IMG/VR virus record: IMGVR_UViG_2636415477_000006
Coordinates: 1-18,348 of that record
Reading direction: 5' to 3' (one strand)
Origin: a virus
Taxonomy: Duplodnaviria > Heunggongvirae > Uroviricota > Caudoviricetes
Length of the DNA: 18,348 bases
A program made the position numbers and the translations under genes. Below are positions 1 to 13,128 of the stretch, one piece after another (positions within the stretch are counted from its first letter, which is position 1; every line of letters starts with the position of its first letter). The notes below the pieces were generated by a model. It saw only the letters and a list, made by a program, of their open reading frames with translations. It did not search any database and was not told the origin of the DNA.

Positions 1-70
1 GTGGGTCGACAGAATCCATGCCGACACGTTCAGCCAGCTTCCCTGCCAGCGTTGCGAGTGCTGTACTCAT
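1..70 (-). CDS. bet: Bet (Red-beta) single-strand annealing protein, N-terminal 23 codons only; gene continues beyond window start
   Basis: Reverse complement of 1..70 translates MSTALATLAGKLAERVGMDSVDP, which I recognise as the lambda Bet N-terminus; it sits 5 nt downstream of the gam stop in the same operon. Confidence 0.75.
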   Translation of the reverse strand, partial: MSTALATLAGKLAERVGMDSVDP

Positions 71-75
71 CCGTT

Positions 76-372
76 TTATACCTCTGAATCAATATTAATT
101 TGGTGACGGGCGATGGTTTCAGCCATGTAGCGGATGTGTTCTGCCATGCGTTCCTGAAAATCGACATCGTCATCAAATGCACGGGAAATAGCTTTTTTGC
201 TGGCCCCGTGACGTTGCAGATTATCGATGCATAGCGATTCAAACAGGTGTTGGGGCAGACCTTTTTCCAGGTCGTCTGCCAGCTCAGCTTCAGTTTCTTC
301 ACGGGCAATTTGCTGGTAGTGTCGTGCCCATGACTGCTCTTCAATGCGATCGGGGATAAGCCAGGCATTCAT
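76..372 (-). CDS. gam: Gam host-nuclease (RecBCD) inhibitor, short GamS-length form, 98 aa
   Basis: 98-aa ORF is near-colinear with the lambda GamS sequence as I remember it (…QSWARHYQQ…[13 protein letters not shown]…LQRHGASKK…[12 protein letters not shown]…); start ATG overlaps the stop of the upstream gene (ATGA); lies directly upstream of bet. Confidence 0.85.
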
Positions 373-2441
373 GATTTATCACCTCCGAAATTTTCAAGCC
401 TGTTGGCAATCATGATGGCGATATCAGGGATTGCTGGCGCTGTGGCTATACATGCGGGGTTGGCGCACAAACCATAGACGGCGGCAATCACGAGCTGTCT
501 TTTCCAGTCGAGAGTTACTGGCTCAGAATTGGCGTCATCGCCGGACGTATCACTGCCTGGCTCGTTCTGAACAACGGTTTCGCCCTCCTGAGCGGCATCA
601 ACAGAGTTTTCCTGAATGATCTTCTCCTCAGTTTGTGCTGAGTCTTCTCCATCAGCGGCGTCATTTTCTCCAAAAGTTTCTGTGTAAGTGCTATCGCCCA
701 TTACCGCACTACAGTCAGGGCAGTTACCCCCGCCAGTCTGACCACAGACGCGGCAGTTTTTTTCCAGCTCCGGTTGCGCTACTGGCCCTGGCTGTTGCTC
801 TTCTGACCCGTTTTGTTGCGTATCCGGGCTGTTTTGTCCCGCTTCTGGGGCAATTTGTTCCACTTTGGACTGATTCTGGTCCTCAGTGTCGCGAGTCTGG
901 ATCCCCTTCACCCACTTCGGATCAGCAGGGTTACTGATGCCTTCAACGAATTCTCCACGCGAGGCAGCCAGTAATTTGTCGGCATCGACTGGATTTTTTG
1001 GGGGGATGTTTTCCCTGGCTTTATTGAGTTCCTCCCTCAGTTCCTGGTATTTCGTTTCTACAGATGAGACATTTTCCAGTGATTGCGTGTCCTCATTATG
1101 TTTAACTGGAATTTCTTCCACTGATTCAGGCGCTGCCTGTTCATTAGCCATTGTGTCCGATGCTTGTTGCTTTTCTTCATCGCCATGTTTTCCTTCTGCT
1201 GTTCCGCGCTGCGGCATCGGTGCTGATGAGCGACCGCAGGCAATTTCCACGATTTCCGGATCCGGGTTAGCGTGATCGGTTTCGGTCAACACTTTGTTGA
1301 GATATTCAGTCACGCGTGCCGGGATGGCCTCAATGCCGATTGGTGCTTCTTTCACGGAAGCCACCACAATGGCGCGGGAATAATCCAGCCCACCGGGCAT
1401 GGCGATAAATTTGTCGCGAAAAACAGAAAAGGGCGGCTTATTCTCTGACACGATTTCTTCAACGCGTTTTGCGTGTGCTGGGTGCAGGTTATAAATATCC
1501 ACATCCATTGAACGGGCCAGAACGCCGGTGGCTACATCTCGTGCGAGTGATGTCTTATCATGTTTGAATCCTTCACCACGATCGGTAAGATTTCCGCCGC
1601 CAGCGTTAGCACCGGAAGGCGTACGGGTAATGCCTGAAACATAATTTCCGTTCTGCCATTCTTTTGTCAGCAGGCCCTGATCAAGGTAGTCAGTTTTCAT
1701 CCAGGTGGAAATGAACTTGTCGAATTCAGCCGGGCTGATGCGATGATTTGCAGAGTGGGGGAATGCTTTCCCTACAGATTCAGCCAGGCGACTAAGGTGA
1801 TAGTTCGTCAGTTTATCCAGTTCATGATGTGCGGCGCGCACAGCAGTAAGCAGGCTCTGAAGGTAACTGTCCTCTGTGTCCATCTCCATACGGATCACGT
1901 TATTGCGTTGTTCTGGTGTGGCGTGATGCCGGTATTTTCCATCTTCATCTTTGCTGAATAAGAAGAGGTGAAGGAAGCGATGAGTAAGGCTCAGAGTGGC
2001 GACGGGAATTTCACACTCAGAACAGTCATCGTCGCTGTCCGGGGATTCGCTTTTCTCCACATCATCCGGAATAGTTCCGTCCAGGTTATCGTTGTCATCG
2101 CCAGCAGTTGTGGCATCTTCACCGTTGATGTTGTCATCGAAGGGGATAGCCATCATGGTGATGCCATCGTTACCGCCTTTTTCATAGCGGTTGCAGAATT
2201 CAGTATCAAACACGCCTTCCGGTGGAAGGTCATTCACGACGGGGAAATTTACGCGAACGGGTTTTTTGAAATCATCCTCGTCGTAGCCTGCATCGTCCAT
2301 GGCTGCAATGCAGCGGGAAACTGCGACAGAAAGTTTTCTGGCCTCGGTCCAGAAAAAACCGCCTTTGATGCCAAGGCGTTTTCTGACTTTATCGTTTTTT
2401 GCTTCGCAGTGTAGTGCAAAAGTCTGTTTATCAGCGCTCAT
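369..2441 (-). CDS. Large acidic 690-aa protein, possibly related to the non-nuclease N-terminal region of RecE (exonuclease VIII); Cys4 zinc-ribbon-like motif (CRVCG…CPDC) near C-terminus; no recognisable nuclease motifs
   Basis: Long ORF with SD-like AGAGG 10 nt upstream of the ATG at 2441; Asp/Glu-rich low-complexity stretches; a central [16 protein letters not shown]…[13 protein letters not shown]…NLHPAHAKR segment that I associate with RecE; translationally coupled to gam. Confidence 0.5.
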
Positions 2442-4967: not shown

Positions 4968-5078
4968 GATGGTCTCCTTTAAGTGGCTTTGGTGTATGAC
5001 GCGTCGAGGTGTTTTTCTTCTCGATCGCGGCCTTGCAACTGAAATTCGCGTCATCCCCAAAACCACTTAGATTTTGGT

Positions 5079-5118
5079 CTCAACGGTTAGGTTGAGAGTC
5101 CATCAATGTTAAAGAGCC
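5079..5118 (-). promoter_or_regulatory. nutL candidate: boxA (GGCTCTTTAACA) followed 8 nt later by a boxB hairpin (CUCAAC-CUAACC-GUUGAG)
   Basis: Minus-strand reading of 5107..5118 is a near-consensus boxA; inverted repeat at 5079..5096 forms a 6-bp stem with 6-nt loop; lies between the pL candidate and the N-like gene. Confidence 0.5.
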
Positions 5119-5164
5119 GGCCAATCTGTTCCGTTTGGCTTCCAGCGTCCTGCTGTTGAATTGA

Positions 5165-5239
5165 AGATAACCTAAGTTATCTGGTTGTTCAATAACTATA
5201 TTTATCATTTTATGAAAAACGTTATAAATAACTGATAAC
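5165..5239 (-). promoter_or_regulatory. pL/OL candidate: minus-strand promoter TTGAAC-17-TATCTT overlapping operator ATAACctaaGTTAT (5167..5180), with further ATAAC/GTTAT half-sites at 5221..5239
   Basis: -35 (reverse complement of 5187..5192) and -10 (reverse complement of 5165..5170) with 17-bp spacer; same ATAAC-N4-GTTAT dyad as in the cI-cro intergenic region. Confidence 0.45.
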
Positions 5240-5300
5240 AAAAATATTTTATTTTTTGTGGTATCCGCGTGATATTTTCAAGGGGGAAAGGCTGATTGTT

Positions 5301-5522
5301 ATGGGTGATTGCATGTTAATCGAAGGGGAATTTGGTGTGTTGCACCAGCGGGTAGTCGAAATTCTAGGGGTGTCGTTGCTTGAGGTTATTGCTACTGGGG
5401 AAGCTATTTCAGCAGATGCTATTGCGGGAATGATCCGAGTGCTTCACCATGATGAATTGGATGATCTCGCTGTGAAGTTAGCTATAGATGTGTTACTTCA
5501 GGATATGCGACTGTGTAATTAA
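5301..5522 (+). CDS. Hypothetical 73-aa protein on plus strand between OL and cI, convergent with cI
   Basis: ATG at 5301 preceded by AGGGGGAAAGG; only ORF of note on either strand across 5256..5522; AT-rich putative promoter overlapping operator half-sites upstream. The ORF track extends it to a TTG at 5256. Confidence 0.45.
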   Translation: MGDCMLIEGEFGVLHQRVVEILGVSLLEVIATGEAISADAIAGMIRVLHHDELDDLAVKLAIDVLLQDMRLCN

Positions 5523-5523
5523 G

Positions 5524-5552
5524 TAAATAAAACCCGGCACTGGAGCCGGGGG
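5524..5552 (-). terminator. Intrinsic terminator downstream of cI (shared bidirectionally with the convergent plus-strand gene)
   Basis: CCCGGC-actgga-GCCGGG hairpin; on minus strand it is followed by UUUUAUUU; on plus strand by a weaker T tail. Confidence 0.55.
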
Positions 5553-5674
5553 ATTTAGAAATGGCATTTTATGAATTGGCTACTTGGCGAATGGTTTACC
5601 ATCGGTGGTATTGAGCACAATAAAAGGCCGTTCTTCGTGAGTGTTCTTATAGCAAAAGTTCAGTTGGAGTCTGA

Positions 5675-6382
5675 TTACCAGCTATGTGATGACCAGAACA
5701 CTCGCCCTATGATTCTTACGTTTTTGTAGAATTCTTCTCTGTTCATTACTTCATCAGGATACTCTTCGCGGTTTATCGATCTGATAATTACCGATGTTGG
5801 CGTGGCTATGAGCGTTTTTACCCTTAACAAATCAGCTTGGCAAATTGCATATGTTTTACCATCCCTGATGCTCGTATCTTGCGTGTTTACCCCCACCACA
5901 TCACCATCATGGAGTGTTGGCTCCATGCTTTGCCCAACAACCCTGACCAACTTTGCCGCTTTTTCTGGAACTCCCATTTTTTTCAGGTAATAGCGCCTAA
6001 AAACTAGAGAGAATTCTGCGGACTCCTCCAATGCACAACTTCCTCCGCCAGCTGAAAGTGAAATATTTAGAAGGGGGAGCGCAACAAATTCGTCATTATC
6101 ATTTTGATGATCATCCCAGGCGATAGCTTTTAAAGATGATTCCCGAGCATTAGATGGCTCTTCTGCGCTCTGTGGTCTCATTGACCCTATACCAGAGCTT
6201 AGCCATTCAGGGCGAACTCTTAACGCGTTGGCTAATTCGACCATTTTACGTGATCCGGTTGTTTTACCAGATGACATCTTTTGTATGGCTGGTTGTGATA
6301 CCCCCACCATGTCTGCAAGTTGTGCTTGTGACAACCCGGCTGAACTCATGGCGGCATTTAGTCTTTCTGCGAATGTTTTCAT
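5675..6382 (-). CDS. cI: CI-type prophage repressor: N-terminal XRE-family HTH plus C-terminal S24 (LexA-like) autopeptidase domain, 235 aa
   Basis: N-terminal …LSQAQLADMVGVSQPAIQKM… HTH; Ala-Gly-type cleavage region (LSAGGG); GQSMEPT serine motif; divergent from cro across an operator-rich intergenic region. Confidence 0.9.
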   Translation of the reverse strand: MKTFAERLNAAMSSAGLSQAQLADMVGVSQPAIQKMSSGKTTGSRKMVELANALRVRPEWLSSGIGSMRPQSAEEPSNARESSLKAIAWDDHQNDNDEFVALPLLNISLSAGGGSCALEESAEFSLVFRRYYLKKMGVPEKAAKLVRVVGQSMEPTLHDGDVVGVNTQDTSIRDGKTYAICQADLLRVKTLIATPTSVIIRSINREEYPDEVMNREEFYKNVRIIGRVFWSSHSW

Positions 6383-6492
6383 ACCTGTAATCTATAACCA
6401 CGGTTATCAAAAGTAAAACAACAATTGTTATTGCCCTGGTGTATAACTCATGTTATTTTTGGTTATGCTTTATTTGCTGTAGAGGTATGCTC
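6383..6492. promoter_or_regulatory. OR/pRM/pR candidate region: three dyad operators (ATAACcacgGTTAT 6394..6407; AACAATTGTT-centred site about 6417..6431; ATAACtcatGTTAT 6444..6457)
   Basis: Repeated ATAAC/GTTAT half-sites spaced about 24-26 bp centre to centre; plausible minus-strand pRM TTGTTT-18-TTATAG ending just before the leaderless-like cI ATG; the plus-strand pR is not pinned down. Confidence 0.5.
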
Positions 6493-11455: not shown

Positions 11456-11764
11456 TTAAACGAAGCGGATCTGGAGTTTTTTCCCTGTAGCACGGGCGAA
11501 TTTTTTCAGTGTGGCAAATGATGGGCCGCTTGTACCTGATGCAAGATTGCTTTCCATTCTGGTTATCGCAGTCGCTTTTGTTCCCATACGTTCAGCAACT
11601 TCAGCCTGGGTTAAGCCAGCTTCTTTTCGTGCTGCCAGCATTTCATCAAGTAGTGCGAATTCATCGGCGATGGCGTCGTATTCTGCTTTTACTGCGGGGT
11701 TAGACAACATTTTTTCTACCATTTCATCGTGTGTCATGGTAGGTGGGGTACGTTTACCAGTCAT
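11456..11764 (-). CDS. higA: HigA-like antitoxin (XRE-family HTH), 102 aa
   Basis: C-terminal HTH …LTQAEVAERMGTKATAITRME…; start overlaps the end of the upstream toxin gene by 11 nt; toxin-first order typical of hig modules. Confidence 0.7.
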   Translation of the reverse strand: MTGKRTPPTMTHDEMVEKMLSNPAVKAEYDAIADEFALLDEMLAARKEAGLTQAEVAERMGTKATAITRMESNLASGTSGPSFATLKKFARATGKKLQIRFV

Positions 11765-12095
11765 GCTTAACCTCCTTCATTCTGGTTTCAGCTTTTCTAA
11801 GCTCGGCAGGTGGAGTTTTTTGCGTTTTCTTTACAAAGCTATGCAACATAATGATTCGCTTTCCTTTTAGCGTGCAGTAAAAAACACGCCCTATGCCTTC
11901 CGAGCCCTTAAGGCGGATTTCAAACAAACCGTCGCCAAATGCCTCTGTATGCGGGGAACCAAGATTAGCTCCGTAAATACGCATTTTCTCCGTGTACCGA
12001 ATGTACCGGGCTTGTAAGGTCTCAGGAAGAGAAAGGATCTCAGCTTCAACCTCGTCACTGTAGTATTCGATAATGTAGTTTATGAGAGTAAACAT
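11754..12095 (-). CDS. higB: HigB/Gp49-like toxin of the RelE/ParE superfamily, about 113 aa
   Basis: Product …FGDGLFEIRLKGSEGIGRVFYCTLKGKRIIMLHSFVKKTQKTP… fits the Gp49/HigB-type pattern; paired with an HTH antitoxin; start set at MFTLINY, downstream of a TTGTCG-17-TATATA minus-strand promoter. Confidence 0.7.
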   Translation of the reverse strand: MFTLINYIIEYYSDEVEAEILSLPETLQARYIRYTEKMRIYGANLGSPHTEAFGDGLFEIRLKGSEGIGRVFYCTLKGKRIIMLHSFVKKTQKTPPAELRKAETRMKEVKHDW

Positions 12096-12109
12096 AACAA
12101 ATTTGTTAT
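12094..12109. promoter_or_regulatory. Perfect 16-bp palindrome ATAACAAATTTGTTAT overlapping the higB start codon and -10 region; candidate HigA operator
   Basis: Sequence is its own reverse complement; located at the higBA promoter. Confidence 0.45.
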
Positions 12110-12125
12110 ATACATTCAAGGTATG

Positions 12126-12241
12126 TTGACGACAACACATATCCGGGATTATATTCTTCGCACGCCAGCAAAATCTGGCGTCGGGATTAGGAACCCCGGA
12201 TAGAAACCGCGACAGAGACACGCCGCGAGCGTGTTTTTTAT
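12126..12241 (+). ncRNA. Candidate small RNA or terminated leader: promoter TTGACG-17-TTATAT (12126..12154), about 80-nt transcript with hairpin CGCCAGcaaaatCTGGCG and intrinsic terminator (12218..12241)
   Basis: Near-consensus -35/-10 with 17-bp spacer; two hairpins; terminator ACACGC-cgcga-GCGTGT followed by TTTTTTATT; no ORF is involved. Confidence 0.35.
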
Positions 12242-12402
12242 TGTCGTATGCACACGCACATCTGAATTATGGTGGGGCGTATAGGGGAGCTGAAAAGCTC
12301 GCCGGTTGGTTTCCCGGTAGTTCCTAACCCTGTACGTCTCGCCACCCGATGATTAGGAACCTGACGGTGGTGATAGTTTAGAAACCACTCGAGGGCGTCA
12401 TT

Positions 12403-13074
12403 ATGACAACTCAAGTTTCTGTTGAAACACTCTCCACGATTACTTACAAGCAGATCCCCGTTATCACTACCGAACTTTTGGCGCACCTTTACGGCACAGA
12501 AGCTATTCGTATTCGCCAGAATCACCACGAAAACAAAGGTCGTTTCATTGAGGAAAAACACTTCTTCAAACTTGAAGGTGAAACTTTACGTGAGTTCAAG
12601 CACAGAGTAGCTTTTAACTACTCTGTGAAAATTGCCCGTAACGTTCGCTCCCTCATCCTATGGACAGAACGCGGCGCAGCCCGTCATGCAAAAATGCTCG
12701 AAACCGATCGGGCGTGGGAAGTGTTCGAAAAACTGGAAGACTGCTATTTCAGCCAGGGAAAAACAACACAAACCGAACAGCAGTCGCAGATTCAGCCACA
12801 ATTCACAGCCGAGGAAATCATCCTCCTTTGCTACATGCAACTCTGGATGGAAAAAGCCCAGGACCTTAGCAAGCAGCTGTACCCCATAATGAAAGAGCTG
12901 AACTCCTCATACACGAACAAGCTGTATGACATTGCGTTTGAGACTATCTACATGGTGACGAAGAACAGAGACGCGCTACTAAGGGAGGTAACACGTCTCG
13001 ACATGTCAAGTTCCGTTATCCAGCGGGCCATGCCAATGCTGAAAAGCCTGCGGGCAAGACAATTTGAATTCTGA
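12403..13074 (+). CDS. ORF6N/KilA-N-type domain protein (antirepressor-like), 223 aa
   Basis: N-terminal …ITYKQIPVITTELLAHLYGTEAIRIRQNHHENKGRFIEEKHFFKL… fits the ORF6N pattern from memory; GAGGG upstream of the ATG. Confidence 0.65.
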   Translation: MTTQVSVETLSTITYKQIPVITTELLAHLYGTEAIRIRQNHHENKGRFIEEKHFFKLEGETLREFKHRVAFNYSVKIARNVRSLILWTERGAARHAKMLETDRAWEVFEKLEDCYFSQGKTTQTEQQSQIQPQFTAEEIILLCYMQLWMEKAQDLSKQLYPIMKELNSSYTNKLYDIAFETIYMVTKNRDALLREVTRLDMSSSVIQRAMPMLKSLRARQFEF

Positions 13075-13128
13075 AACTAAAGGAGCTTCGGCTCCTTTTT
13101 TGTTGGGAAAATCCAGTGAGAGGGAATA

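Follow-up and report, generated by a model that had tools for sequence, protein, structure and literature searches.

An IsrK and C4 regulatory RNA cassette upstream of a predicted antirepressor gene in an E. coli prophage

A gap of approximately 250 nt lies upstream of an ORF6N gene in the analysed window, a stretch of 18,348 nucleotides of phage DNA. Which RNAs are encoded in this gap, and how might they control the gene behind it? An earlier note had described a promoter, a terminated hairpin transcript and a motif repeated in both orientations, and had suggested an attenuation or antisense switch acting on the antirepressor-like gene. The region was found to be an E. coli prophage copy of a known regulatory RNA cassette composed of IsrK and C4. 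The element is real, and its kind is not new: the arrangement has already been described for phages P1/P7 and for the Gifsy-1 prophage of Salmonella Typhimurium, the isrK–orf45/STnc1160–anrP locus of which was studied experimentally (Hershko-Shalev et al. 2016; PMC4825925). The gap holds two RNA genes and four target sites in the layout promoter - IsrK (a1 b1) - C4 - a2 b2 - antirepressor gene. Family membership, RNA structure with covariation, the three-way co-variation of the sites and the site geometry were computed in the present analysis. We consider it probable that the region forms a self-contained antirepressor control cassette of the immI type in a lambdoid E. coli prophage, including the regulation proposed below. 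Such a cassette would decide whether the prophage antirepressor is made and, hence, whether the prophage wakes. The following features were assigned.

12126..12155, plus strand: predicted sigma-70 promoter, -35 TTGACG (12126..12131), 18-nt spacer, -10 TATATT (12150..12155); based on 10/12 consensus matches, conservation and Gifsy-1 homology
12162..12239, plus strand: IsrK-type small RNA (a1b1 leader), about 78 nt; based on Rfam RF01394 and fold
12162..12181, plus strand: IsrK hairpin 1, CGCCAG (12163..12168) pairing with CTGGCG (12175..12180)
12182..12198, plus strand: IsrK hairpin 2, its loop holding site a1
12187..12194, plus strand: site a1, TTAGGAAC, loop of IsrK hairpin 2; complement of a′; mean probability unpaired 0.87
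12203..12209, plus strand: site b1, GAAACCG, in the single-stranded IsrK linker; forms 7 pairs, including one G·U, with the b′ loop; duplex -7.4 kcal/mol
12218..12239, plus strand: IsrK intrinsic terminator, stem ACACGC/GCGTGT (12218..12223 with 12229..12234), loop CGCGA, T5 (12235..12239)
12271..12346, plus strand: C4-type antisense RNA gene, 76 nt, equivalent of Gifsy-1 STnc1160; based on RF01695, fold and covariation
12307..12313, plus strand: recognition element b′, TGGTTTC, loop of C4 hairpin P3; probability unpaired 0.99
12320..12327, plus strand: recognition element a′, GTTCCTAA, in the single-stranded C4 linker; probability unpaired 0.97
12340..12372, plus strand: predicted alternative hairpin CGCCACC/GGTGGTG that would hold a2 in its loop, rivalling the lower end of the C4 closing stem as long as the transcript is unprocessed
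12353..12360, plus strand: target site a2, TTAGGAAC, 6 nt past the inferred C4 3′ end; duplex with a′ -9.8 kcal/mol
12381..12387, plus strand: target site b2, GAAACCA; duplex with b′ -8.1 kcal/mol
12403..13074, plus strand: gene for an antirepressor-like protein of 223 aa (672 nt) with Pfam domains ORF6N and P22AR_C
13079..13104, plus strand: intrinsic terminator closing the cassette, AAAGGAGC-TTCG-GCTCCTTT followed by a T run; from the terminator scan

Promoter, IsrK and antirepressor gene

The TTGACG element of the promoter proposed earlier is present and conserved, while the -10 box, previously placed as TTATAT behind 17 nt, is better taken as TATATT behind an 18-nt spacer. A lone promoter-like match of this quality is no better than chance (3 found versus 4.1 expected in 3.5 kb). 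For comparison, a set of relatives comprising 28 distinct sequences was aligned using MAFFT. TTGACR-N18-TATATT was present in every relative whose aligned slice covers the -35 box, the -10 box was invariant in all 28, and the DNA immediately 5' of the -35 box varied among them. The predicted promoter is the homologue of PisrK of Gifsy-1 and of P1c4 (P51b) of phage P1; the Gifsy-1 promoter, with the same sequence layout, was mapped and its activity shown experimentally (PMC4825925). Inspection of the promoter by eye revealed no convincing LexA box, and the palindrome at 12094..12109 is part of the divergent toxin-antitoxin genes.

The stretch behind the promoter, interpreted before as an sRNA or terminated leader, is IsrK: RF01394 (isrK) matched 12162..12239 with 69.2 bits at a threshold of 50 (model 1-77). 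Using homology with the Gifsy-1 numbering, A12162 was assigned as 5' end. The hairpin CGCCAG…CTGGCG and the terminator expected for an RNA of roughly 80 nt were both found in place, yielding about 78 nt, and the 79-nt stretch 12162..12240 folds at -27.3 kcal/mol (z = -2.9). RF03163 (c4-a1b1) scored 44.2 bits at 12149..12202, a stretch also covered by the isrK match, and remained narrowly under its threshold of 46.7, which was passed by three relatives (L048, L058 and L016). The core hairpin of the IsrK terminator amounts to -7.1 kcal/mol, and partial read-through is expected because the stem is short. The plus-strand terminator scan did not list it, since on folding the stem extends into the T run. 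Hairpin and T run together with the 8 nt behind them (ACACGCCGCGAGCGTGTTTTTTATTGTCGT) are identical in Gifsy-1; the relatives carry differing hairpin sequences, always followed by a T run. Judged by its sequence, the candidate IsrK possesses its own promoter and a Rho-independent terminator and is followed by a C4-type RNA and an antirepressor gene. For Gifsy-1 IsrK, read-through into anrP was measured, and a long read-through isoform, activation of antirepressor translation in trans by the short IsrK and Hfq binding were reported (PMC4825925).

The gene at 12403..13074 (here called ant) encodes a predicted antirepressor, presumably regulated by the cassette. Its product is 60% identical to AnrP of Gifsy-1 over residues 1-146, and AnrP induces Gifsy-1 (PMC4825925). 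The IsrK/C4 module was detected in 736 of 5426 complete E. coli genomes, about one in seven, and in 270 phage records; many Shiga-toxin phages carry it. The same E. coli genomes hold a second copy of the module (2 places per record). No module copy had an RNA gene annotation in the RefSeq record examined.

C4 RNA and co-variation of the pairing sites

The C4 RNA gene (12271..12346), to which the GTTCCTAA copy belongs, had not been recognized in the earlier note. RF01695 (C4) matched 12265..12349 over the full model (1-87) with 66.0 bits at a threshold of 45, P1 itself yielding 68.8 bits. The ends of the RNA were inferred from the annotated 77-nt C4 of P1 (GGTGGGGCG...GCCACC); the flanks AATTAT|GG and GCCACC are invariant in the 28 relatives and match the annotated P1 ends. 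Within these ends the closing stem comprises 16 pairs, to which the Rfam structure adds T12270–A12344 as the 17th, and it encloses two hairpins and a 9-nt single-stranded linker. The RNA folds at -43.3 kcal/mol (z = -6.06), with the minimum-energy fold, identical to the Rfam structure, accounting for 82% of the ensemble. Among the 28 relatives 98.8% of 1196 cells were paired and 10 pairs had changed on both sides, compared to 33-42% paired cells in slid controls; helices 4 and 5 were 100% paired with 5 pairs each changed on both sides. C4 is probably a discrete, trans-acting RNA which is processed out of a precursor, and the identity of its end sequence to that of P1 points to RNase P as the probable nuclease for the 5' end. 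The alternative hairpin at 12340..12372 was 100% paired in the 28 sequences, one pair having changed on both sides.

Between C4 and ant no icd-type ORF was found. The sole ORF overlaps C4 and is unconserved: it starts with the AUG at 12269..12271 at the C4 5' end and terminates after 27 codons, leaving 50 nt to the ant ATG. Its length in the 28 relatives varies between 14 and 36 codons, the frame shifts, and in none of them does it extend to the ant start. A small protein gene at 12269..12352, comparable to orf45 of Gifsy-1, was considered and rejected because length and frame vary and the substitutions are compensatory for the RNA stems.

All three copies of the repeated motif were located as described before. 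TTAGGAAC occurs exactly 3 times in the window (12187, 12353 and, as its complement GTTCCTAA, 12320), all within 174 nt, versus 0.36 occurrences expected by chance; 3 were reached in 2 of 200 shuffles. The predicted mutually exclusive pairings exist as well, a1:a′ excluding a2:a′ since only one a′ is available to both a1 and a2. A second motif set not contained in the earlier note, GAAACC(G/A), is complementary to TGGTTTC at 12307..12313, with its downstream copy beside the ribosome-binding site. Site b1 ends 8 nt 5' of the IsrK terminator stem. Site b2 lies 3 nt upstream of the Shine-Dalgarno sequence GAGGG (12391..12395), which it adjoins without overlap, and 15 nt upstream of the ATG; in the relatives b2 always ends 9-16 nt before the ATG, often overlapping the Shine-Dalgarno sequence. 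Each single duplex is weak (7-8 bp, -7 to -10 kcal/mol). Loop-loop contacts of this type are pseudoknot-like and for this reason invisible to whole-transcript folding, and cofolding was left unused on the same grounds.

With the register set by the conserved flanks (28 sequences), pairing was found in 201 of 202 cells for a1:a′ and in all 203 for a2:a′. Four positions showed Watson-Crick changes on both sides, and none of 2000 shuffles reached these pairing values. Column-based pair counts were dropped for the b sites, since MAFFT places loop and target indels in different registers, and register-free duplex energies of cognate versus non-cognate combinations were compared instead. Throughout the 28 relatives a change in one copy of a site is accompanied by changes in the other two. 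Counted were 7 a-alleles and 5 b-alleles, which form 12 combinations, and further alleles are added by Gifsy-1 and P1; another address carried by a module is TTAGCAC/TCGAAAC. Ranked by duplex energy, the cognate targets on both sides of C4 came first for 12 of 12 C4 types, the cognate mean being -17.3 kcal/mol versus -11.1 kcal/mol (downstream) and -12.3 kcal/mol (upstream) for non-cognate targets. A catalogue of co-varying address alleles was obtained as a by-product.

Proposed regulation and alternative explanations

The following course of regulation is proposed. The single promoter at 12126..12155 would start transcription at approximately 12162, and the weak terminator at 12218..12239 would stop most transcripts, giving the roughly 78-nt IsrK which displays a1 and b1. 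Some transcripts would read through into C4 and the antirepressor gene. From this precursor C4 (12271..12346) would probably be excised, at its 5′ end by RNase P as in P1, exposing b′ in a hairpin loop and a′ in the linker, both short and unpaired. Pairing of a′ and b′ with their partners a2 and b2 in the antirepressor mRNA leader would then prevent antirepressor formation during lysogeny; as b2 lies 3 nt from the Shine-Dalgarno sequence, the two-site complex would keep ribosomes off ant. IsrK, which offers the same two sites, would compete for C4, either free or as a segment of the long transcript, and once IsrK is abundant the leader would be freed, the antirepressor made and the prophage repressor inactivated. 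Acting as an address, the a and b sequences would restrict the control of a given cassette to its cognate C4. Thus, C4 most likely blocks antirepressor translation, with the short IsrK as a decoy relieving the block. We infer both the decoy role of IsrK and, for the E. coli version, that C4 directly covers the ribosome-binding site of ant. The Gifsy-1 experiments are the source for promoter activity, a1:a′ pairing, read-through and activation by IsrK, those with P1/P7 for repression by C4 and RNase P processing.

The genetics of Gifsy-1 bear on this proposal in both directions. When the Gifsy-1 sequence was numbered, its compensatory pairs G28–C162 and G31–C159 mapped exactly onto a1:a′. Repression was not fully recovered in the double mutants, which gave 224 and 327 units versus 4 in the wild type (PMC4825925); such a shortfall is to be expected if pairing of a′ with a2 is required as well. 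Basal translation of AnrP rose when the cis-located a1 was mutated, explained by the authors with a structural switch in cis combined with translation of the leader ORF (PMC4825925). A simple decoy model does not predict this effect, which counts against such a model. Furthermore, constitutive STnc1160/orf45 did not lower IsrK toxicity in Gifsy-1, which counts against C4 as the repressor (PMC4825925).

A first alternative is the model published for Gifsy-1, according to which the read-through transcript is inactive in cis through pairing of the IsrK middle with C4/orf45, the short IsrK opens it in trans, translation of the leader ORF is coupled to that of the antirepressor, and C4 is only a processing product. 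It is supported by direct genetic and gel-shift evidence from Gifsy-1, where the locus is homologous (PMC4825925). The present locus shares the AUG (12269..12271), and the alternative hairpin at 12340..12372 demonstrates that competing folds exist. In Gifsy-1, however, the leader ORF stop overlaps the anrP start as AUGA (PMC4825925), whereas the ORF described above ends short of the ant start, and therefore the coupling step cannot work as in Gifsy-1. Sequence change in the C4/leader ORF stretch follows the RNA pairing, being compensatory, and not the reading frame, and the model leaves unexplained that a2/b2 co-vary with C4 as tightly as a1/b1. Altogether, we regard it as unlikely for the present locus. 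About equally unlikely appears a main action of C4 on transcription, either by binding nascent a1/b1 near the IsrK terminator, as known from the P4 CI RNA, or by blocking translation and thereby exposing the mRNA to Rho, as for icd–ant of P1. Rho-dependent polarity, reportedly described by Biere et al. 1992, is the accepted P1 mechanism and was counted in favour of this explanation, as was the short distance of b1 to the terminator stem (8 nt). The Gifsy-1 authors themselves raised the P4 analogy, and in their system IsrK raised a transcriptional fusion 8-fold as well as a translational fusion, but the translational effect was far larger (139-fold versus 8-fold; PMC4825925). Moreover, the position of b2 beside the Shine-Dalgarno sequence in every allele argues for a translational target, and no leader gene precedes ant here through which polarity could act.

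Of the two switches suggested originally, the antisense one holds in outline; attenuation does not. For a purely cis-acting attenuator, in which alternative hairpins formed by the motifs around the terminator decide on read-through into the antirepressor gene, speak the terminator between promoter and gene and the mutual complementarity of the motifs. However, the only complement of TTAGGAAC lies approximately 85 nt downstream of the terminator and is made after the termination decision, so that it cannot determine the termination of its own transcript in cis. It also belongs to an RNA domain that folds separately and shows covariation of its own, the predicted folds contained no antiterminator hairpin pairing with the terminator stem, and no Rfam cis-regulatory family matched at the locus. 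Such an attenuator is very unlikely. Chance resemblance or a decayed, functionless remnant, suggested by a promoter match that by itself is no better than chance, has practically no probability left: two Rfam matches exceed their thresholds, the motif is found three times instead of the 0.36 times expected, the module is spread over E. coli genomes and phage records as given above, and the three-way covariation over 12 haplotypes refutes it.

Returning to C4 as translational repressor and IsrK as decoy, one extension is put forward tentatively, as we hold it for possible but somewhat doubtful. The a and b sequences may constitute a combinatorial address code which insulates or links the antirepressor switches of co-resident prophages, with IsrK as an allele-specific C4 sponge and C4 blocking the ribosome-binding site directly without a leader ORF. 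If this were true, a prophage could sense the activation of another prophage sharing its address, and the E. coli circuit without leader ORF would be simpler than either published model. Occasional mismatched modules were observed (L047 and L003); under an address code these would be recombinants caught switching their address. The lacking conservation of the Gifsy-1 leader ORF bears on the question which of the two published mechanisms is general.

Comparison with known systems

The Gifsy-1 module is 79.8% identical over all 292 nt of the cassette. Shared are the promoter layout, the IsrK hairpins, the C4-type RNA next to them, the places of the a and b sites, b2 beside the Shine-Dalgarno sequence and the ORF6N antirepressor downstream. 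The addresses differ, with a = TTGGCGT and b = ATCACCG in Gifsy-1 versus a = TTAGGAAC and b = GAAACC here. The leader ORF of Gifsy-1 comprises 45 codons and overlaps the anrP start with its stop, in contrast to the unconserved 27 codons ending 50 nt short here. The C-terminal half of the antirepressor is unlike that of AnrP and carries P22AR_C. While the Gifsy-1 cassette directly follows the Q antiterminator gene, the present one is located upstream of the late region, between a toxin-antitoxin pair on one side and ninB on the other.

Two further systems show similar arrangements. ORF6N homologues lacking IsrK/C4 have sRNA-Xcc1 (RF02221) at the corresponding place, roughly 40 nt upstream. Its Rfam family and its sequence are different ones, and the Rfam search gave no match to it in the window. 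In L028 it follows the same logic of promoter, terminated leader, structured RNA and two short sequences, complementary to the RNA, which are repeated up- and downstream. The structural analogue named by the Gifsy-1 authors is the CI RNA of phage P4 with seqA/seqC, a processed small RNA that pairs with target copies up- and downstream in one transcript and, by their summary, causes premature transcription termination of the replication genes (PMC4825925).

The second close system is the immI operon of P1/P7 (c4, icd, ant1/ant2; Citron & Schuster 1990; RF01695, RF03163). The P1 record annotates promoter, a1, b1, C4, a2 and b2 in the same order, with an a1b1 leader that ends in a hairpin and T run and is followed by the antirepressor, and both leaders open with the same kind of hairpin. 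Its C4 shares the fold, the 5′ sequence (AATTAT|GGTGGGGCG) and the 3′ end (GCCACC) and likewise holds a′ in the linker and b′ in a hairpin loop; the sites also measure 7-8 nt, a2 closely follows the 3′ end of C4, only a few nt away, b2 is situated at the ribosome-binding site, and the alternative hairpin has its equivalent in CCTGC..GCAGG. Outside C4 little sequence identity was found. P1 differs in possessing a second, C1-controlled promoter with operator and an ant1 of 1044 nt compared to the 672 nt of the gene here, and it is a plasmid prophage, whereas the present one is an integrated lambdoid prophage. Finally, b2 of P1 covers the Shine-Dalgarno sequence of icd, a small gene translationally coupled to ant, while in the present cassette, without icd, b2 adjoins the Shine-Dalgarno sequence of the antirepressor gene itself.

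Two RNA genes in front of the antirepressor-like gene

The whole window was scanned with Rfam at the curated thresholds, and a second scan was run with a relaxed threshold. All elements that an earlier note had named in front of the ORF6N gene were found in place. The hairpin transcript, which it had taken for an sRNA or a terminated leader, is IsrK according to the match to isrK (RF01394; 12162..12239; 69.2 bits, threshold 50), while c4-a1b1 (RF03163) was seen at 12149..12202 in the relaxed scan only, with 44.2 bits just below its threshold of 46.7. The first hairpin (CGCCAG/CTGGCG, 12163..12180) and the terminator (6-bp stem, 12218..12223 with 12229..12234, then a T run) were confirmed, the terminator core amounting to only -7.1 kcal/mol. 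The reported motif TTAGGAAC does occur three times in the 18,348 nt (0.36 expected), all inside 174 nt. Its complementary copy sits in a second RNA gene unseen in that note, the C4 antisense RNA (RF01695; 12265..12349; 66 bits, threshold 45). The predicted C4 fold was identical to the Rfam structure (-43.3 kcal/mol, 82% of the ensemble, z = -6.06 versus shuffles).

Of the proposed promoter, TTGACG (12126..12131) was retained, and TTATAT with its 17-nt spacer was replaced by the better TATATT (12150..12155, 18-nt spacer), TTGACG-N18-TATATT giving 10/12 promoter matches. As 3 promoter-like matches were found in the region versus 4.1 expected, a single match is not above chance, and the weight of the call comes from conservation among relatives. 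The -10 was identical in 28/28 aligned sequences, and the -35 TTGACR was present in all sequences aligned far enough upstream to include it. The DNA just 5' of the -35 belongs to several unrelated types; the left border of a mobile cassette thus lies here.

The pairing sites were assigned by transfer from phage P1. The annotated P1 genome has the order promoter P1c4, a1, b1, 77-nt C4, a2, b2, icd, ant1/ant2. In its sequence, the partner of "b" is the loop of the second C4 hairpin, and that of "a" is the single-stranded linker which follows this hairpin.

Features of the cassette and its upstream neighbors
11456..11764, minus strand: HTH antitoxin gene, transcribed away from the cassette
11754..12095, minus strand: Gp49/HigB-type toxin gene, transcribed away from the cassette
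12187..12194: a1, TTAGGAAC, loop of IsrK hairpin 2
12203..12209: b1, GAAACCG, IsrK linker
12307..12313: b′, TGGTTTC, C4 hairpin loop
12320..12327: a′, GTTCCTAA, C4 linker
12353..12360: a2, TTAGGAAC, leader 3' of C4
12381..12387: b2, GAAACCA, 3 nt 5' of the Shine-Dalgarno sequence
12391..12395: Shine-Dalgarno sequence GAGGG; ATG of the antirepressor-like gene at 12403

The two IsrK sites were exposed (probability unpaired 0.87 and 0.89), as were a′ and b′ in C4 (0.97 and 0.99). In the unprocessed transcript, an alternative hairpin (CGCCACC/GGTGGTG, 12340..12372, plus strand) would compete with the base of the closing stem of C4, with a2 in the hairpin loop. It was 100% paired in the 28 aligned sequences, and P1 has an equivalent.

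Co-evolution of the pairing sites

Via the ORF6N protein 80 viral contigs were fetched, which yielded 43 distinct upstream regions, 34 of them with the cassette. The alignment comprised 28 distinct sequences, the window included. The two RNA genes, their folds and the four target sites recur in it, and the three copies of each site co-evolve. Helices within the RNAs were paired in 98.8% of 1196 cells, with 10 pairs changed on both sides; with partners slid by 1-3 columns as control only 33-42% were paired.

For the a sites seven alleles were found (TTAGGAAC, TTCGAAC, TTGGAAC, TTTGCAC, TTAGCAC, TTGGCAT, TTGGCGT). Pairing was observed in 201/202 cells for a1:a′ and 203/203 for a2:a′, and four positions showed Watson-Crick changes in both partners. 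When C4 was shuffled among the sequences, these values were reached in 0 of 2000 cases. The b sites showed five alleles (GAAACC, TCAACC, CTACC, TCGAAAC, TACGGA), each again in all three places. Both sets reassort into 12 combinations, and for 12/12 C4 types the best predicted duplex was the cognate target, upstream and downstream alike (mean -17.3 kcal/mol for cognate versus -11.1 downstream and -12.3 upstream for non-cognate duplexes). This covariation excludes chance resemblance. In the relatives, 9-16 nt always separate the end of b2 from the ATG, and b2 frequently overlaps the Shine-Dalgarno sequence. Two relatives carry a foreign site 5' of the ORF6N gene (about 1228..1512 in each), L047 with a1 TTGAGAC versus a′ GTTCCTAA and L003 with b2 GAAACCA versus the b′ loop TTGGTTGAT; both probably arose by recombination between cassettes of different address type.

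Prophage setting and related controllers

The window belongs to a lambdoid E. coli prophage. Three isolates from the human gut carry the 321 nt around the cassette on their chromosomes with 100% identity. The module was found in 736/5426 complete E. coli genomes and 270 phage records, mostly of Shiga-toxin phages; a genome holds up to four copies, and each of the three identical strains two. The closest annotated genome shows the order cI, cro, cII, replication genes, toxin-antitoxin (RelE/Gp49-type toxin and HTH antitoxin, minus strand), gap, ORF6N gene, ninB, ninE, rusA, ninH, the cassette being the unannotated gap 5' of the "ORF6N domain-containing protein". Near the repressor gene an indel of ~0.9 kb separates the window (about 5000..6400) from the closest complete genome, L001 (5862..6623), and, judging by gene coordinates, the window seems to lack the KilA-N gene of the L001 annotation. 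The antitoxin probably has its operator in a perfect 16-bp palindrome (ATAACAAA/TTTGTTAT, 12094..12109); this palindrome overlaps the start of the toxin gene. The Rfam sRNA STnc100 gave two tandem matches (16118..16309 and 16585..16794, plus strand; 145 and 138 bits, threshold 47), ~470 nt apart and 5' of an esterase-like ORF starting at 16996.

Before ORF6N homologues lacking IsrK/C4, sRNA-Xcc1 (RF02221) was found in their position in the relatives L014, L025-L031 and L077 (about 1370..1460). In L028 (1240..1505) a TTGACA-N18-TATATT promoter is followed by a terminated leader with CTCAAAAC and GCGATAG; the sRNA-Xcc1 RNA holds GTTTTGAG and CTATCGC, and CTCAAAA and GCGATAG recur just before the Shine-Dalgarno sequence. 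The logic is that of the IsrK/C4 cassette, and sRNA-Xcc1 therefore appears to be another family of antirepressor controllers in the C4 style. L077 carries an IsrK+C4 cassette (240..425) and an sRNA-Xcc1 cassette (1370..1453) in tandem within ~1.2 kb, L020 has an sRNA-Xcc1 copy 3' of the antirepressor gene (2290..2380), and L055 a hok/sok-type sok RNA nearby (48..222).

Proposed mechanism and comparison with Gifsy-1 and P1

In the Salmonella prophage Gifsy-1 the isrK locus is flanked by the Q antiterminator gene and by STM2616 (AnrP). The three Rfam families match there as well, and over the full 292 nt this locus shares 79.8% identity with the window cassette, with identical terminator hairpin, T run and next 8 nt; the window protein (domains ORF6N and P22AR_C) shares 60% identity with AnrP over residues 1-146. 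In Gifsy-1, the isrK promoter serves anrP through read-through into a long, translationally silent RNA, AnrP translation rises >100-fold when IsrK is supplied in trans, AnrP induces the prophage, and STnc1160 is a stable processed RNA arising 3' of IsrK (Hershko-Shalev et al., PMC4825925). The published compensatory pairs G28–C162 and G31–C159 (Gifsy-1 sequence numbered from its start) are exactly a1:a′ pairs. By analogy, promoter transcription, partial read-through, IsrK activation and a1:a′ pairing, as shown in this homologue, would apply to the window.

In P1/P7, C4 reportedly represses antirepressor synthesis and is processed by RNase P, and the window C4 may by analogy do the same. The P1/P7 points are based on the P1 annotation and on paper titles (Citron & Schuster 1990; Hartmann et al. 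1995). C4 begins (AATTAT|GGTGGGGCG) and ends (GCCACC) alike in P1 and window, and by this homology the mature C4 would span 12271..12346. A hairpin with a T run separates a1b1 from c4 in P1 too, and the isrK model gives a weak match to it (35.1 bits). The terminated leader therefore belongs to the ancestral design.

The earlier note had proposed an attenuation or antisense switch. The order of the parts, with the motif complement 3' of the terminator, excludes a purely cis attenuator. As b2 lies only 3 nt from the Shine-Dalgarno sequence, C4 bound to a2 and b2 would prevent 30S binding at the start of the antirepressor gene; IsrK, with both its sites exposed, would compete for a′ and b′ and relieve repression. 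C4 may also act on transcription (P4-like, or through Rho), in addition to the translational effect. In Gifsy-1, repression was not regained in the double mutants (224 and 327 units versus 4; PMC4825925), as expected if a′ must match a2 too. An a1 mutation in cis raised basal expression (PMC4825925), at odds with a simple decoy, so that some cis folding effect is likely in addition to competition by IsrK; the hairpin 12340..12372 could be part of it.

The Gifsy-1 leader ORF, which runs from the AUG at the 5′ end of C4 to a stop codon on the anrP start, was described as conserved in nucleotide, not in amino-acid, sequence (PMC4825925). It is not conserved in the window, where the same AUG (12269) opens a frame of 27 codons whose end lies 50 nt upstream of the ATG; in relatives it has 14-36 codons in differing frames. 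Translational coupling through this ORF therefore cannot be the general mechanism.

Elements of this kind are already known and have curated Rfam families; for E. coli O157:H7 EDL933, an annotation based on Rfam already includes C4 and two copies of isrK (PMC5331693). The copy in the window is unannotated in RefSeq. Specialists may find only two points to pursue, the set of address alleles that co-vary and the lack of conservation of the leader ORF (orf45). The cassette has no counterpart of P1 icd, and the window copy differs by its address alleles and the missing coupled leader ORF, with no new principle.
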